Assembly (NCBI GenBank): GCA_034659855.1
Contig: JAYEIA010000053.1
Span: forward strand, 1 to 40,565
Reading direction: 5' to 3'
Length of the DNA stretch: 40,565 nucleotides
Source: Bacteroidota bacterium
Lineage (GTDB): Bacteria > Bacteroidota > Bacteroidia > Bacteroidales > JAADGE01
Part shown: piece after piece, positions 4,633-40,565 of the stretch
Layout: the number at the start of each line of letters is the position of its first letter
Numbering within the stretch: position 1 is the stretch's first letter
Notes under the pieces: model-generated
The model's database searches: none
What the model was told of the DNA's origin: nothing
The model's input: the letters and a program-made list of their open reading frames with translations, nothing else
Made by a program: the position numbers and the translations under genes

Positions 4633-4880
4633 GAAACCGACCTAAATTGAGCGATTATGAATAAAGAGAAGTGCCAATATTTTGAGAACAAAAGCTTTAC
4701 AAAAAAATTAAGTGCATTCAATTGGGACATAATGTTTTTTTTGTAATGTCTTTTCGCTCAAGGGCGAAGCCCTCATAAACACCTTATTAAATTATTTTAA
4801 AATTAGTGAATAAAAGATTGCTGCTTATCGAAGTTCATAATCGCTCATTTTAGATCTGAACTGTATTTACAGGAGGTGTT

Positions 4881-9922: not shown

Positions 9923-10459
9923 TTGTTCAATTTCCCCGAGTTTCCTTGATCTGTCCCGATAATCCTAAAAAAGTGTCGTATAATGATGAATAACCCTTTC
10001 TATGTTCTAAATTAGACTCAGATTATTAAGAAACGGAAACAAAATTCCAACTAACGTTAAAATTAGTTACTGATTATCAATGGTTTATTTTTTTAAATTT
10101 TAGTAAAAATATTCAATAGAATTTTACCATAGTACAATAACAATAGTTCGTTAAATTTTTATAATTACCTTATATTCAATACTTTATAAAGCAAGCCGTA
10201 AGCGAGTTAAAATGTTGATTATTACCTGCTTAGTTCGTAATTAATAATTACCTACGGTGAGGGCTTCGCCGTTCGTAATTTAACGAAGTGTTGCAATAAT
10301 ATTCAAGCGATAGTCGAAGTGCCTAACTATTATAACTTATTTCGTATCCGTTCCTAAGAAATTCTATAGATTTTGTAAAAAAAACAGCTTTTATGGAAAT
10401 AACATTTCCGAATACTACAATTTGTTGTATATTGGTACAAAATATAAAAAAACATTAAA

Positions 10460-19352: not shown

Positions 19353-19559
19353 TTGTCAGCATTTATTATAGACATTAATAAAACAGAAGGAATAATGAAA
19401 AAGATACATATTAATATAATAGTAATTGTTGTGATTGCTATATTTTTAATATCAATTGATATGTTTAATTTGCTTGAAAAATCAGCAAAATTTATGTTGA
19501 TACCAATCTTAGCATTTTATTTTATTGGACAATATTCAGAACAGAAATTTCATAAATAA
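19353..19559 (+). CDS. Possible small two-TM membrane protein
   Basis: 68 aa. It has two hydrophobic helices. It is very AT-rich with no recognisable motif, and it could be non-coding. Confidence 0.25.
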   Translation: MSAFIIDINKTEGIMKKIHINIIVIVVIAIFLISIDMFNLLEKSAKFMLIPILAFYFIGQYSEQKFHK

Positions 19560-19720
19560 GAGTTAAATTTCACACAAGTGTGCGAGTTGTGGACAATTAC
19601 AATTTATAATATTGATGGAAAATTAGATAAATTGAAGATAAAAACATCTTATGTAATACTGTTGGCTACCGTTTTGGCGACTTTTTTTGTTTTTCCCAAA
19701 AAAGAGGTATTTTTTGATGT

Positions 19721-20070
19721 TTTTTCAATAAATCGCAGAGCGATGACCTATCGGTAGCCCCGTATGTAGCCGTAGGCGGAATGCGGGGTTAAATATGATT
19801 TTAAAATTTCTAAAATTCCGTAGGAATGATCTATGTTTTAGAGACCATCCCTACGGGATTTTTATATTTTGATATATCATAGAATCCCCGCATTCCATAC
19901 GGGGCTACCGATAGATCAAGCCTACGGCTTTTTTTTTCAATAAATCGCAGAGTGATGATCATTATGTAGGCACGGGTGGAAACCCGTGCAAATAAACGGT
20001 TTTATCATTTTTAAAATTCCTTAGGAGGGACCATATACAAAAACGCTCCAACCGAGCGTTTTTGTATTTT
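19721..20070. repeat. Structured intergenic element of two degenerate tandem units, each starting CAATAAATCGCAGAGYGATGA, containing long inverted repeats and hairpins
   Basis: The direct repeat caataaatcgcagag[c/t]gatga occurs at 19726-19746 and again at 19938-19958. The inverted repeat tatcggtagccccgtatg...gaatgcgggg (19749-19788) pairs with ccccgcattc/catacggggctaccgata (19886-19913). An inner hairpin ccgtaggaatg (19819-19829) pairs with catccctacgg (19846-19856). A further hairpin is cacgggt-ggaaa-acccgtg (19971-19988). The motif ttttaaaattcc recurs at 19808 and 20010. A terminator-like hairpin aaaacgctc-caacc-gagcgtttt lies at 20039-20062. Confidence 0.6.
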
Positions 20071-20206
20071 AGGAAGATCATTAACTCTTCAAAAATCGGA
20101 AATATTAAAATAAAGAACAAATAATCTCAGAGCCTTTATGGAATCTTTATCAAAAAGTTATCTAATCATTGAATTCAGAAATATTTTAACTTTAATACTA
20201 TTAGTT

Positions 20207-21334
20207 ATGAAAACAAATGCAATTTTCGGAATATTATTGGCTTTGGCTTTACTTATAAACCTCAGCACATATGCTCAAAAATCAGATGACAATGGATCTA
20301 AAATCCAAGTAGCCTTACTTTTGGATACCAGTAACAGTATGGACGGTTTGATAGATCAAGCTAAAACAGAACTGTGGAGTGTGGTCAATGAATTGGCAAC
20401 GACAACTTATAAAGGAAATCGCCCGGAACTGGAGATTGCTCTGTATGAATACGGGAACGACAATTTGGAAAGTGCCGACGGATACGTTCGTTTGGTAAGT
20501 CCACTGACTACAGACTTGGATGCAATTTCTGAGCAATTATTTTCACTTAAAACCAACGGAGGCTATGAATATTGCGGAACAGTCATTAGAGATGCCTCTG
20601 ATGAGCTCAAATGGAGTAAATCGGACAAAGACCTGAAAATGATTTTTATAGCCGGGAATGAAGAGTTTACTCAAGGCGCAGTAGATTATAAAACTTCTTG
20701 CAAAAATTCAATTGCCGAAGGGATAATTATTAATACTATATTTTGCGGCAATGCTACCGAGGGAATTAATACCATGTGGAAAGACGGAGCCGACTTGGCC
20801 GACGGAAAGTATATGAATATTAATCAAAATCAGCAAGTAAGCTATATTGAAACACCTTTTGATGATCAAATTTTAGGATTGAACACAAAATTAAATAAGA
20901 CTTATATTGGATACGGAAGTCAGGGCGAAGCTTTTGGTTCCAGACAATCAGTTCAAGATATAAATGCCGTAAAAATGAGTAAAAAGGCCTCTGTGGGGCG
21001 GGCAGTTTCTAAAAGCTCTTCAGCCTATCGTAACTCCAATTGGGATTTGGTTGATGCTGTAGAAGATGAATCCGTTGATATTGAAGAAATTAAAGAAGAA
21101 CAGTTGCCTGAAGAAATGAAGGGTATGGATAAAAAAGAAAGGAAAGCATATGTTGAAGGAAAAAAGGAGGAGAGAGAAAAAATTCAGAAACAAATTAATG
21201 CGCTTAATAAAAAGCGAGAAGCGTTTATAGCAAAGGAAAAGAAAAATAATGCTGAGGAGGGTACTCTGGGGTCAGCGTTAATAAAAGTGGTGAGAGAACA
21301 AGCTCAGGATAAAAATTATATTTTTGAAAAATAA
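20207..21334 (+). CDS. Secreted von Willebrand factor A (vWA) domain protein with a C-terminal charged coiled coil
   Basis: A signal peptide (MKTNAIFGILLALALLINLSTYAQ) is followed by a MIDAS motif (ALLLDTSNSMDG) and a Lys/Glu-rich C-terminus. The track ORF starts at 20138, but the ATG at 20207 gives the signal peptide. Confidence 0.7.
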   Translation: MKTNAIFGILLALALLINLSTYAQKSDDNGSKIQVALLLDTSNSMDGLIDQAKTELWSVVNELATTTYKGNRPELEIALYEYGNDNLESADGYVRLVSPLTTDLDAISEQLFSLKTNGGYEYCGTVIRDASDELKWSKSDKDLKMIFIAGNEEFTQGAVDYKTSCKNSIAEGIIINTIFCGNATEGINTMWKDGADLADGKYMNINQNQQVSYIETPFDDQILGLNTKLNKTYIGYGSQGEAFGSRQSVQDINAVKMSKKASVGRAVSKSSSAYRNSNWDLVDAVEDESVDIEEIKEEQLPEEMKGMDKKERKAYVEGKKEEREKIQKQINALNKKREAFIAKEKKNNAEEGTLGSALIKVVREQAQDKNYIFEK

Positions 21335-21645
21335 GGGCAGTAACTTAAATTCAGTACTATACAGCAGTAGCAAAGCGTGTGAGGGGGGAGGAATTAATAA
21401 CACGCTTCCCCTCAACATACAAAGAAAACCTCACTTTTAATAAACCAAATATGAGTTCAGTATAAAAAGTATAAAGTATTAATGTAAAACGTGTTATTTG
21501 CCTAATATTCAAACAGCTGTTAAAATATAGTAATTCTATATAATTTGTTGAATATCAAATAATTAACTTTACAAACTTTCAACTTTTAACCTTTTTAAAC
21601 TACACTCAAATATAAACAGCCGCTTTTCGGCAAAAAGTCAAAACC

Positions 21646-25033: not shown

Positions 25034-26218
25034 ATGGAATTATTGTTTGAGCAATTTGTCTATAAGCTCAGAAGTATTGACTATAGGCATAAACGCTTTC
25101 TGTACGATGTCATTGATTGGAACCGCAACCCGGTTGTTATAAAAGGAGCACATTTTGTCGGAAAATCAAACCTGGCTTTACAATTTGTTAAGCAAAATTA
25201 TAAAATTAATACTCAAGTTCTTTATGTAGCAGCCGATCATATTTACTTTTCTCAAAACAGTTTAGGGGGTTTTGCAGAAAATTTTGCCAAACAAGGGGGA
25301 AAACATTTATTTATTGATGATATCCACAAGTATGACGGCTGGCATGAAGAAATTGAGCAAGTTCTTAGAAATTACGGGAATTTAAAGTTAGTTTTGATAG
25401 GCTCTTCAGTAGAGGACTATGAAAAAAACAGTTATATTAAAGAAAAATCGGCAATCTATGAGTTGCCCATTTTGTCTTTAAGAGAGTATATTCATTTTTC
25501 ATCAGGAGTCGATATTCCAAAAGTAAGTTTTGGGGATATTCTGAAGAACCATGTTGAAATAAGCTTAGAGATTACACAAAAGGTTGATCCCACAGCATAT
25601 ATGGATTCATACATGCGATACGGCGGTTATCCGTCTTTTACAAAAGACAGTAGTGGTTTGCTTACCCAATTGGCTGAAAAGTTTAATCGATTTATAGAAT
25701 CCGATTTAACTCAAGTGGGTGGGGTAGATTTTCAAAATTTGAAGAAAATTAAGCAGTTGATTCTGTTTTTAGCTACAGATCATTCCGATAAATTAAATAT
25801 TACTGATCTCAGTAAGTTGGTAAATGCCACCAGAGGAACCGTTCTGCAATATTTGGAACTTTTGCGCAAAGGTCGGATAATAAGTTTGTATAAGGAGAGA
25901 GGTAAGGAATCCGGTGTGATGACGAAGGCTGATAGTGTATTTATTAATAATACCAATCTGTTATATACATTTTCTGCCCAATTTAAAAAATGTTTAATAC
26001 AAAAGACATTTTTTCAACATCAACTTTCTGTATCTCAGGAGGTTTATTATTCTCAACAAGCTGATTTTGAGGTTTCCGGCATACTATTTGATATTTTGTG
26101 TAAAGAAAGTTTTTATCAAAAGAAATTTAATGAGCAATCAAAAATATACGCAGTGGATTCTATAGAAATAGGGGTTGAAAACTCTATACCACTGTGGTTA
26201 TTCGGATTTATGTACTAA
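25034..26218 (+). CDS. AAA+ family ATPase of the COG1373 / DUF4143 type
   Basis: 394 aa. Walker A is GAHFVGKS and the Walker B-like motif is HLFIDDIH. The C-terminal region resembles the DUF4143 of orphan archaeal/bacterial ATPases. Confidence 0.6.
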   Translation: MELLFEQFVYKLRSIDYRHKRFLYDVIDWNRNPVVIKGAHFVGKSNLALQFVKQNYKINTQVLYVAADHIYFSQNSLGGFAENFAKQGGKHLFIDDIHKYDGWHEEIEQVLRNYGNLKLVLIGSSVEDYEKNSYIKEKSAIYELPILSLREYIHFSSGVDIPKVSFGDILKNHVEISLEITQKVDPTAYMDSYMRYGGYPSFTKDSSGLLTQLAEKFNRFIESDLTQVGGVDFQNLKKIKQLILFLATDHSDKLNITDLSKLVNATRGTVLQYLELLRKGRIISLYKERGKESGVMTKADSVFINNTNLLYTFSAQFKKCLIQKTFFQHQLSVSQEVYYSQQADFEVSGILFDILCKESFYQKKFNEQSKIYAVDSIEIGVENSIPLWLFGFMY

Positions 26219-26318: not shown

Positions 26319-26490
26319 GCTTCTTAACAGACTTCCCGGTTAGCGGTAAACCTTTGTTTTTATGAGTAAACCATTCTAAATTACAGGTTTTGATAATGCA
26401 ATAAAAATTAAGAAAGATTTAAGAAATATGGCTTTTACAAACGGATACAAAATAAATTATGATAGCTGGGCGAAGTTATTTTTTGATACA

Positions 26491-28775: not shown

Positions 28776-28850
28776 CGGGGTATGGCGCAGCCCGGTTAGC
28801 GCGCTACGTTCGGGACGTAGAGGCCGTGAGTTCGAATCTCACTACCCCGA
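28776..28850 (+). tRNA. tRNA-Pro (anticodon CGG)
   Basis: A 75-nt cloverleaf. The acceptor stem is CGGGGTA/TACCCCG, the D arm GCGC-AGCCCGGTTA-GCGC, and the anticodon stem CTACG/CGTAG with loop TTCGGGA (CGG). The T arm is GTGAG-TTCGAAT-CTCAC and the discriminator is A. It closely resembles bacterial proK. CCA is not encoded. Confidence 0.9.
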
Positions 28851-36130: not shown

Positions 36131-36227
36131 CGGTCAATTTTTTGCAAATATATCATTTTGTCGAAATAATAAGGAACGGATACGAAATAAATTATGATAG
36201 TGTAGGCGATGATATTTTGTTTGCGTT

Positions 36228-36401
36228 GCTAAGGAGTGTCTGAACGGAAATACCCAAAATTAGAAATGTTTTTTTTTGCGATATTTTTATTTTTTTTAAT
36301 TCGCTGATACAGTGGCATCACCAAATTTAAAAAAATAAAAATCTCATCAAAAAAAACTCATTTCGTAAAATTCGTCTATTTCCGTTCAGACACTAAGGAA
36401 C
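36228..36401. repeat. Perfect 15-bp inverted repeat (gtgtctgaacggaaa / tttccgttcagacac) flanking a 128-bp AT-rich segment, each copy adjoined by a taagga direct motif
   Basis: The left copy is at 36236-36250 and is preceded by ctaagga. The right copy is at 36379-36393 and is followed by taaggaac. The segment lies in the promoter region of the minus-strand methyltransferase gene. Confidence 0.6.
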
Positions 36402-39343: not shown

Positions 39344-40351
39344 ATGAAAAGTATATTTATAGCCTATCCGTCTCAGGATAAAAGTTTGGCAAAAAAATTA
39401 TCCTCTAAGTTGGAAGGCAAAGGGTATTCTTGTAAAATACTACCCAGAGACCATACTGACAGTGCCGGTAATGATGTTGAGCTTGAAGATATTATTGCCG
39501 ATTGCAGTATATTTCTTATGCTGTATTCTGATTTTGCTCAACAATCCGATAAATTGGCCGAACAACTTCATTGGGCCTATGATTACGGCTTAAAAATTAT
39601 TCCTTTTAAAACAGCAAAGCTTACAAATTCTCTCAGTTCCGGATTTTTATTGCATAAATATGAATGGCTGGATGCCTTCGGAGATGGGTTTGATTCGGCC
39701 TATGAAGTTCTGCTTGAGATTATACAGGAAGTTAATGACGGAAAATCTCCCGAGCGCATGATAAAACAAAAAATAAGCAAAAAAGAGTCTGTAGCTCCTC
39801 CAAATCAAAAGAAATATATTCTAATTGGGATTTTTATTTTAGCGGTGGCCTTGATAGTTTATGCGATATCAGAAAACTTTAGCAATAACAAAACGAATAC
39901 AGAATCTTCAACAAATACCGGTCAATTTACAGACCCTGCCGGAAACAGCCGAACAGATTTTACCGATAACGCTGATATTACAACCGTAAAAAAAGGTTCA
40001 AGATGGCTTGTGGGCGAGTGGGTGGTTTCTGATTATTTCGATGACCAAAAAGTTTCAGCGGGTGATAAGCAGATGATCAAAGATGCCATCGTAGGAAAAG
40101 GGAAATTAATTTTTAATGCCGATAAGCAGTTCTTTCGTATGGGCTTTGCACCACAAGTGCAACAAGCCGACTGGTCTTTTGATGCCATTAGAAGTACTAT
40201 TGTTTTGGAAGTTAACAATACTGTTCAGGAAATGAAATTGTCGCAGTATAACGATTCGGCTTTTGTGATGTTGACTACTGAACAAGTAACTGATTCGCTC
40301 GGAACGGTAAGCCCGGTTACTACCAAAATTGTATTTTCTAAGGTTAAATGA
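39344..40351 (+). CDS. TIR-domain (N-terminal, cytoplasmic) - single TM - C-terminal lipocalin-like domain protein
   Basis: 335 aa. The N-terminus MKSIFIAYPSQDKSLAKKL...GYSC..LPRD...CSIFLMLYS...LAEQLHWA...GLKIIPF matches the bacterial TIR_2 pattern (FISYS..D at the start, an alphaC Glu candidate, IIP strand). A TM helix (YILIGIFILAVALIVYAI) is followed by an S/T/N-rich linker. The C-terminal region (WLVGEWVV...) resembles the lipocalin-like domain of the upstream lipoprotein. Confidence 0.6.
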   Translation: MKSIFIAYPSQDKSLAKKLSSKLEGKGYSCKILPRDHTDSAGNDVELEDIIADCSIFLMLYSDFAQQSDKLAEQLHWAYDYGLKIIPFKTAKLTNSLSSGFLLHKYEWLDAFGDGFDSAYEVLLEIIQEVNDGKSPERMIKQKISKKESVAPPNQKKYILIGIFILAVALIVYAISENFSNNKTNTESSTNTGQFTDPAGNSRTDFTDNADITTVKKGSRWLVGEWVVSDYFDDQKVSAGDKQMIKDAIVGKGKLIFNADKQFFRMGFAPQVQQADWSFDAIRSTIVLEVNNTVQEMKLSQYNDSAFVMLTTEQVTDSLGTVSPVTTKIVFSKVK

Positions 40352-40565
40352 GTTCAGTTTAAAAAGTTATTAAGTTGAGAGTTTATAAAGTTAAAGTGCT
40401 AAAAATAAGAGTTTTAAGTTAGCAAAAAAATAATTCATAAAACTCTGATAATTAGGCATATAGCTTGTTTTGCTGAAATAAAACATACTTTTTAGACCAG
40501 ACTCTTAAATAAATACAAAAAAATAAGGACAAAGCATATTTTAAGTGCTTGTTACAAAATAAAGT

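Follow-up and report, generated by a model that had tools for sequence, protein, structure and literature searches.

The spacer upstream of a pair of von Willebrand factor A (vWA) genes in a member of the Bacteroidales (assembly GCA_034659855.1, contig JAYEIA010000053.1) carries a 356-nt intergenic element in which a strong terminator-like hairpin follows three copies of a single ~100-nt module: M1 on the plus strand, M2 inverted on the minus strand, and M3 on the plus strand. The whole stretch of DNA analysed, 40,565 nucleotides in length, is called the window here. We tentatively interpret the region, at a probability of roughly 0.45, as a lineage-specific cluster of three palindromic modules that resembles repetitive extragenic palindromic (REP) sequences, REP doublets forming hairpins (REPINs) and bacterial interspersed mosaic elements (BIMEs), and that would be a non-autonomous selfish element in a hypervariable spacer. 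This instance is lineage-specific and previously unseen, and is most likely nothing out of the ordinary in kind: an intergenic palindromic repeat of the REP, REPIN or MITE (miniature inverted-repeat transposable element) type, accompanied by terminators. An initial annotation had described a tandem duplication of two structured units of about 210 bp each, and had proposed small structured RNAs, a leader of the vWA genes, a MITE-like repeat or a recombination site.

The presence of this structure upstream of the vWA genes was confirmed, and it greatly exceeds what chance would produce. The 21-mer CAATAAATCGCAGAG[C/T]GATGA, said to open both units with one mismatch, is indeed found at 19726-19746 and 19938-19958; these are exactly two occurrences in the window, where chance predicts none, and no third copy was found in the window with up to three mismatches allowed. 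With the six T residues before it, the 21-mer forms a 27-nt direct repeat that is identical at 26 of 27 positions, with 212 nt from start to start. The single difference, C to T in the second copy, produces a G-T wobble in hairpin A on the plus strand. The long interrupted palindrome proposed for unit 1 is also present. Its outer arms (19744-19766 / 19896-19918) measure 23 nt and are 96% complementary, the next arms (19778-19788 / 19886-19896) pair at 11 of 11 positions, and the inner arms (19812-19832 / 19842-19862) are 21 nt long and 86% complementary. A 12-nt insertion (19767-19778) in the left arm has no counterpart in the right arm. The inner hairpin had been described as 11 bp; its arms exist, but the pair of 11-mers contains one mismatch. 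When folded as RNA, the region is more stable than shuffled sequence by z = -14.0 on the plus strand and z = -12.2 on the minus strand, and when folded as DNA by z = -10.5. A single long hairpin from 19744 to 19918 is predicted on both strands.

When unit 2 and the left half of unit 1 are aligned with the reverse-complemented right half of unit 1, the three modules emerge (Table 1), which fit better than two ~210-bp units. Homology in unit 2 covers ~100 nt (19938-20034), and the right half of unit 1 is a third, inverted module copy rather than part of a plain two-unit duplication. The GC hairpin reported in unit 2 exists, with its sequence corrected to GCACGGGT-GGAA-ACCCGTGC. The motif that had been called common to both units occurs as the exact string ttttaaaattcc in unit 2 only, and unit 1 reads ttctaaaattcc. 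The terminator-like stem of unit 2 is likewise present (20035-20067), but is separate from the module-homologous part. On its own sense strand each module contains three local hairpins, A, B and C. Hairpin B is central, with 8 bp, a GC-rich base and GTAG immediately 5' to it, and is followed in M1, M2 and M3 by an AT-rich spacer of ~26 nt. GNA and GNRA loops are stable, and most sense-strand loops are of these types; the exceptions are AGA (hairpin A of M1 and M3), TTA (hairpin C of M3) and the 15-nt loop of M1. Together, M1 and M2 make up a head-to-head inverted doublet with the GTAG tags outermost and a structured spacer of 97 nt.

Table 1. Positions of the modules, their hairpins and adjoining features in the window
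Feature	Position	Strand	Details
Small membrane-protein gene (54 aa)	19395..19559	+	Real gene, from homologues; 5' gene boundary of the spacer, outside the repeat
Direct repeat, copy 1 (T6 + 21-mer CAATAAATCGCAGAGCGATGA)	19720..19746	+	Contains hairpin A of M1
Direct repeat, copy 2	19932..19958	+	26/27 identical; contains hairpin A of M3
Nested, interrupted palindrome, ~175 nt	19744..19918		From M1-M2 pairing; repeat search and folding
Module M1	19726..19838	+	Alignment; covariance model 101 bits
M1 hairpin A	19732-19744	+	ATCGC-AGA-GCGAT; 5 bp, triloop
M1 GTAG tag	19754-19757	+	Closes linker before hairpin B
M1 hairpin B	19758-19788	+	Stem CCCCGTAT/ATGCGGGG; 15-nt loop holding the 12-nt insertion 19767-19778
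M1 hairpin C	19815-19827	+	ATTCC-GTA-GGAAT
Module M2, inverted copy	19842..19937	-	Alignment; covariance model 98 bits
M2 hairpin A	19918-19930 (plus-strand coordinates)	-	AAGCC-GTA-GGCTT; 5 bp, triloop; then T9 on the plus strand, terminator-like
M2 GTAG tag	19908-19905	-	Closes linker before hairpin B
M2 hairpin B	19904-19886	-	CCCCGTAT-GGA-ATGCGGGG
M2 hairpin C	19847-19859	-	ATCCC-GTA-GGGAT in sense (plus strand ATCCC-TAC-GGGAT)
Module M3, singlet with different stem	19938..20034	+	Alignment; covariance model 104 bits
M3 hairpin A	19944-19956	+	ATCGC-AGA-GTGAT; 5 bp, triloop
M3 GTAG tag	19966-19969	+	Closes linker before hairpin B
M3 hairpin B	19970-19989	+	GCACGGGT-GGAA-ACCCGTGC
M3 hairpin C	20016-20028	+	TTCC-TTA-GGAG
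Perfect 14-bp hairpin	20035..20070		ATACAAAAACGCTC-caacc-GAGCGTTTTTGTAT; stem 20035-20067, then TTT; -19.3 kcal/mol
Conserved block upstream of vWA ATG (20207)	20130..20206	+	From alignment; downstream limit of the lineage-specific insert

The hairpins are preserved among the copies through compensatory changes. Over the 18 base pairs of the three-module alignment pairing is 98%, and 8 of these pairs are altered on both sides between copies. Among 500 shuffles, none matched the observed pairing values for four of five measures, and one did so for the fifth; when partner columns were slid as a control, pairing fell to 33-48%. Every pair that departs from Watson-Crick pairing is a G-T when read on the module's sense strand, and this strand folds better than the antisense strand by 7-10 kcal/mol with RNA parameters and by 1-2 kcal/mol with DNA parameters. 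Selection on the single-strand hairpins of each module's own sense strand may have shaped the modules.

The similarities among modules form a mosaic. In region A, M1 matches M3 at 20 of 21 positions and M2 at 11 of 21. The order is reversed in hairpin B, where M1 and M2 are identical (19/19) and M1 and M3 share 10 of 19 positions; with the linker included, the values are 29/30 for M1 and M2 and 16/30 for M1 and M3. In the spacer M1 again is closer to M3 (17/26) than to M2 (10/26). The relationship among M1, M2 and M3 is not tree-like, and the pattern needs either gene conversion between the copies or a variant pool from which each was drawn independently, as is the case for BIMEs.

A GTAG tetranucleotide with an adjacent GC-rich hairpin is the hallmark of REP sequences, which are bound and cut on single-stranded DNA by a REP-associated tyrosine transposase (RAYT, or TnpA_REP), a Y1 HUH enzyme that acts in trans. 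In M1, M2 and M3 alike, GTAG immediately adjoins the foot of hairpin B, and GTAG or CTAC occurs 8 times in the element, compared with 1.3 expected from the window rate. According to a published descriptor, REPs carry GT[AG]G at 0-2 nt from a fully paired stem of 7-20 nt that has at least three G/C in the first four positions and a loop of 2-5 nt (PMC6006769). We coded this rule and ran it over both strands of the 40.5-kb window. The single strict match is M3 at 19966 (8 bp, GGAA loop), where the null is 0.02 per window. If one G-T pair is allowed, M2 at 19908 on the minus strand also matches. Hairpin B of M1 has the same stem as that of M2, but its 15-nt loop is outside the 2-5-nt rule and inside the 2-20-nt range used in another study (PMC3733652). 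The doublet arrangement of REPINs is found as well, in that M1 and M2 are head to head across the 97-nt spacer and foldable as one hairpin.

Among families of GTAG repeats the "HH dimer", with GTAG outside, predominates; spacers are 20-100 bp and often contain stem-loops, and the smallest "group" consists of a dimer with one singlet (PMC3733652). Compared with the REPs, BIMEs and REPINs of E. coli, Pseudomonas and Stenotrophomonas (PMC3733652, PMC3116915), the element has similar GTAG sequences directly 5' of GC-rich hairpins (8 bp, short loop), a similar head-to-head doublet with GTAG outside, a structured spacer of ~100 nt and one long fold, and a similar cluster of a dimer and a differently stemmed singlet with BIME-like mosaicism. 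Like them, it occupies a spacer whose flanking genes share one direction, close to the upstream operon's 3' end. It differs in being known from one locus, with no RAYT gene in view, and in its module of ~100 nt, in which two extra conserved mini-hairpins (A and C) flank the REP-like hairpin and the M1 loop has 15 nt. A 2013 survey of GTAG repeats listed none for Bacteroidota (Di Nocera et al., PMC3733652), and the host of the element is an uncultured lineage of that phylum. TnpA_REP subclasses 2.4 and 2.6 are present in Bacteroidetes together with associated hairpin repeats; the repeats of the former are long, canonical GT[AG]G REPs whose base is GC, and the latter has "atypical secondary structures" with copies elsewhere in the genome (Quentin et al. 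2018, PMC6006769). These repeats come from the same phylum as the element, which is likened to them by description and not by sequence, and which has no adjoining tnpA_REP gene.

The element also shares features with MITEs that have long terminal inverted repeats, such as Correia/NEMIS of Neisseria, RUP and ERIC/IRU. These include a size of ~175 bp, an intergenic site, near-perfect 23-nt terminal inverted repeats (19744-19766 / 19896-19918, 96%), and a long RNA hairpin fold with the capacity to affect termination or mRNA stability. Unlike these MITEs, the element is palindromic throughout its interior rather than at its ends alone, an additional direct singlet, M3, shares half of the element, and no parent insertion sequence is known. 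No target-site duplication abutting the arms was seen by eye; the flanks read ...GCAGAGCGA / TGACC... and ...GATCA / AGCCTACGG. The 27-nt direct repeat was considered as a target-site duplication and rejected, in that it includes hairpin A and homology runs on into the modules. An integron attC site was also rejected, as GTTRRRY/RYYYAAC cores are not in the attC arrangement. Of the possibilities raised initially, a MITE-like repeat is closest to the evidence, given modules in both orientations, GTAG hairpins, a variable spacer and absence from relatives.

Several points weigh against a REP/REPIN-like cluster. BLAST and covariance-model searches of the remaining 40 kb and of related loci revealed no second module locus, so that the presence of many dispersed copies, the defining trait of a REP or MITE, is unproven. 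No Y1 or other transposase and no integrase is found among the 38 window open reading frames (ORFs) scanned against Pfam. Only M3 conforms to the strict REP rule, in view of the long M1 loop and the G-T pair that the M2 stem needs; the three-hairpin module exceeds the classical REP size of 20-40 nt; and the GTAG sequences were noticed post hoc, after inspection of the sequence.

Searches for further copies covered several collections. A covariance model (R1) built from M1, M2 and M3 scores 98-104 bits on these modules; with filters off, it gave at most 17 bits (E of at least 0.3) in the rest of the window and twelve related loci. An exact 20-mer scan of GTDB representative genomes returned one chance match, located in coding sequence of high GC content from an unrelated Bacteroidaceae metagenome-assembled genome (MAG). 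The pattern ATCGCAGAGYGATGA-N(0-30)-TATGTAG, which has 22 specified bases and represents both plus-strand units, had one chance match in JGI metagenomes, inside a coding region. Of four exact patterns used on IMG/VR, a 16-mer had 7 matches with unrelated flanks and the other three had none. Plasmids and phages searched by blastn in distant mode yielded just 33-nt AT-rich chance matches in Acinetobacter, and a search with a spurious 43-aa ORF overlying the element produced no candidate. The Rfam search that had been recommended was carried out and gives no family for the region: with Rfam 15 at gathering thresholds the sole match in the whole window is a tRNA (28776-28850), and with permissive E-values the best match in 19500-20250 has an E-value of 0.18 and a bit score far below gathering. 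At the search sensitivity reached, the element is known from its source organism alone.

The element resides in the spacer between an operon of DUF4476 and small-protein genes and the vWA operon, which have the same direction; neighbouring genes in the window are housekeeping genes. The vWA product is annotated with 375 aa, which places its start at the ATG at 20207. In the nearest relatives, whose vWA proteins are 69-77% identical, the L004 and L005 loci share the gene order PGM / hydrolase / CYTH / M48 peptidase / 226-aa protein / DUF4476 / spacer / vWA / VIT-vWA, and the short L003 contig contains the vWA / VIT-vWA pair only. The content of the spacer varies: it is 212 bp with a plain terminator in L004, holds an MNT/HepT toxin-antitoxin pair and unrelated nested palindromes in L005-L007, and has other AT-rich sequence in L003. 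The module is absent from all of these syntenic loci. The initial annotation had regarded such an absence as evidence against the structured element, and the relatives, which are distant ones, do lack it. This variability suggests that the DUF4476-vWA spacer is a hot spot for small insertions. In one relative (L005, GCA_964472505.1; 4690-4930 and 5590-5900) the MNT/HepT pair is flanked by the palindromes ccctgttaaat...atttaacaggg and gcttcgacaag...cttgtcgaagc.

In an alignment of four loci, the sequence just upstream of the vWA start is conserved as a block from ~130 nt ahead of the ATG, near 20130. This block probably holds the vWA promoter. Both the element and the strong terminator hairpin at 20035-20067 are upstream of the block, and, if the block is indeed the promoter region, the element is therefore outside the vWA leader.

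The 54-aa gene at the other side of the spacer has 54-aa homologues with 58-76% identity in Bacteroidales and Ignavibacteria, in unrelated gene neighbourhoods. We considered whether this ORF travels with the element, and rejected the idea, as it is a conserved gene in unrelated contexts with no module nearby. In one context, translational coupling links the gene to desulfoferrodoxin within an operon for oxidative stress. A short conserved palindromic motif, TTCACA..GTGTGCGAG or its inverse, follows the 54-aa gene in several loci (window 19395-19600; L022 4166-4240; L023 4166-4200).

The hairpin at 20035-20070 has a symmetric A-run and T-run and a stem of the kind required of intrinsic terminators, and is a predicted terminator that could be active in both directions. 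On the plus strand, T-runs follow hairpins at 19859 (T5), 19930 (T9) and 20067, and the hairpins at 19918-19930 and 19847-19859 are weak (-4.5 and -4.8 kcal/mol). The features at 20035-20070 (14-bp stem, T-run, symmetric A-run) and 19918-19937 (5-bp stem, T9) resemble known intrinsic terminators, including bidirectional ones. However, one hairpin suffices for termination, and this function leaves three homologous three-hairpin modules, their two orientations and the GTAG tags unexplained. A promoter-like motif with one mismatch to the Bacteroidota consensus (TTTG at 19686-19689, an 18-nt spacer and TATTTTTT at 19708-19715) is situated just upstream of unit 1; no promoter motif was found upstream of unit 2.

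If the element is a REP/REPIN-like cluster, GTAG and hairpin B of each module would be recognized and cut on single-stranded DNA by a RAYT/TnpA_REP protein acting in trans. The M1-M2 doublet could also fold as one 175-nt hairpin, in the manner of REPINs, and M3 would be a singlet. Recognition of single-stranded DNA by a Y1 HUH enzyme fits better than a function within one transcript, given that M2 runs in the opposite polarity. The cluster would have been inserted into a spacer that repeatedly takes up foreign DNA. Its local effect would be incidental: transcription of the upstream operon may end at the M1-M2 hairpin, then at the 5-bp hairpin and T9 (19918-19937), and then at the 20035-20070 hairpin, and this stack of hairpins and T-runs may insulate the vWA promoter, which is probably downstream of the element.

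The arrangement might instead have a local, non-mobile origin, in which an ancestral terminator or spacer segment was tandemly duplicated, once with inversion, and the copies were then retained, or simply tolerated, as stacked terminators insulating the vWA operon from the co-directional upstream operon, with no dispersed family and no transposase. This explanation, the main rival, is possible, if unlikely. It would account for the fact that all three copies are within 310 nt and none was found elsewhere, for the plus-strand T-runs, and for the simple terminator at the equivalent place in L004; moreover, since the genes on both sides are co-directional, a terminator is needed in the spacer. 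However, mosaic similarity cannot arise by simple duplication and divergence, and compensatory upkeep of hairpins in M2, which is antisense on the plus-strand transcript, is unexpected for an RNA terminator. The two small hairpins are also weak, the strong hairpin at 20035-20067 is outside the modules and sufficient alone, and GTAG beside hairpin B in every copy contributes nothing to termination. Small structured RNAs, or a long 5' leader, transcribed from the plus strand, ending at ~19937 (T9) and within 20035-20070, and regulating the vWA genes or other targets, are improbable. The promoter-like motif immediately upstream of the first 21-mer, the hairpin and T-run that close both plus-strand units, the covariation in the hairpins, and the better folding of the plus strand, which is the sense strand of M1 and M3, are all features that such RNAs might have. 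Yet there is no Rfam family and no homologue in relatives or in the public collections scanned, unit 2 is without an upstream promoter motif, M2 bears the same hairpins on the opposite strand, and the M1-M2 palindrome is as stable on one strand as on the other. With the conserved vWA block downstream of a strong terminator, the element is probably outside the leader, and the conserved noncoding RNA and leader options of the initial annotation are not supported. It is doubtful, too, that the element represents an undescribed REPIN-like family with a three-hairpin GTAG module, bigger than classical REPs and differently organised, in which two accessory GNA-triloop hairpins flank the REP hairpin, perhaps unstable in the population, or that its plus-strand units are lineage-specific small RNAs.

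Bacteroidota invertons have a characteristic geometry, with inverted repeats around a short segment upstream of secreted-protein genes. The 23-nt inverted repeats 19744-19766 / 19896-19918 flank a 129-nt segment upstream of such genes, and could bound an invertible, phase-variable segment controlling surface or secreted vWA proteins; the breaks of independent assemblies inside the left arm in two samples could then reflect heterogeneity of the population. We consider this very unlikely. Inversion of a quasi-palindromic interior would alter little, no exact TAnnTTTG was found inside by a scan of the plus strand or by eye on the minus strand, and there is no recombinase or integrase gene in the 40-kb window. 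In addition, the contig ends (19782/19765) are off the predicted inverted-repeat boundary (19766/19767), and M3 and the direct repeat are left unexplained. The recombination site suggested at the outset is improbable for the same reasons, namely the quasi-palindromic interior, the lack of an internal Bacteroidota promoter motif and the lack of a recombinase gene in the window. Palindromes are also a known signature of chimeras, and no Logan contig spans the whole left arm (they stop at 19782 and restart at 19765), as might be seen if the palindrome were a fold-back chimera created by assembly of the MAG contig. This is extremely unlikely, however, because Logan assemblies of two runs match through 19782 and another matches base for base from 19765, and because the arms differ by a 12-nt indel and diverged spacers, unlike those of a fold-back chimera.

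Logan assemblies of two sequencing runs agree base for base with the window over 19540-19782 and from 19765 onward, and the contig from 19765 covers the inner palindrome, the right arm and M3. No Logan contig crosses the left arm, where the join is present in the MAG assembly only. The breaks are inside hairpin B of M1: L016 and L017, from the two runs, end at 19782, and L001 starts at 19765. The sole overlap of these contigs is the 18-mer TGTAGCCGTAGGCGGAAT (19765-19782), in the loop of this hairpin. Because the region contains no exact repeat of at least 31 nt, a k=31 assembly graph should not branch there. The contig ends are exactly those expected from a mixture of one- and two-copy tandem TGTAGCCGTAGGCGGAAT, which may be their cause; alternatively, coverage may drop, or a systematic sequencing error may occur, in the hairpin.

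Other repeats are found elsewhere in the window. A dispersed motif of ~26-39 nt, AACGGATAC[G/A]AAATAA[A/G]TTAT[G/A]ATAG, has three intergenic copies (10326-10364, minus strand; 26440-26465 and 36163-36201, plus strand). It is unrelated to the element, and may represent either a site of regulation or a further family of small repeats. Directly after its third copy is a second long nested intergenic palindrome (36235-36394), with outer arms 36235-36261 / 36368-36394 (27 nt, 85%) and inner arms 36268-36308 / 36317-36357 (41 nt, 83%). Its sequence is unrelated to the element, and its layout, a short repeat and then a hairpin of ~160 nt, is alike. An intergenic inverted repeat at 4639-4856 has 45-nt arms with 76% complementarity and 128 nt between them, and also inner hairpins. 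A 46-nt inverted repeat (21563-21608 / 40349-40394) is 83% complementary, and its arms are 18.7 kb apart, one in the spacer that separates the vWA genes from each other, the other close to where a TIR-domain gene ends. The TIR-domain protein (335 aa, 39344-40351) and an AAA_14/DUF4143 ATPase (25034-26218) may be related to defence, and are unrelated to the element.

For purposes of annotation, the structure should not be labelled a riboswitch, a small RNA or a regulator of vWA genes. Palindromes of this kind fragment short-read assemblies, as reflected in the three Logan contigs that end inside the element. If the REP/REPIN interpretation is true, the element would be of interest mainly for research on selfish repeats and HUH transposases, and would open no long-standing question. 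It would, however, extend GTAG-tagged, RAYT-type repeats to a poorly sampled lineage of Bacteroidota, in the form of an unusually large, three-hairpin module.

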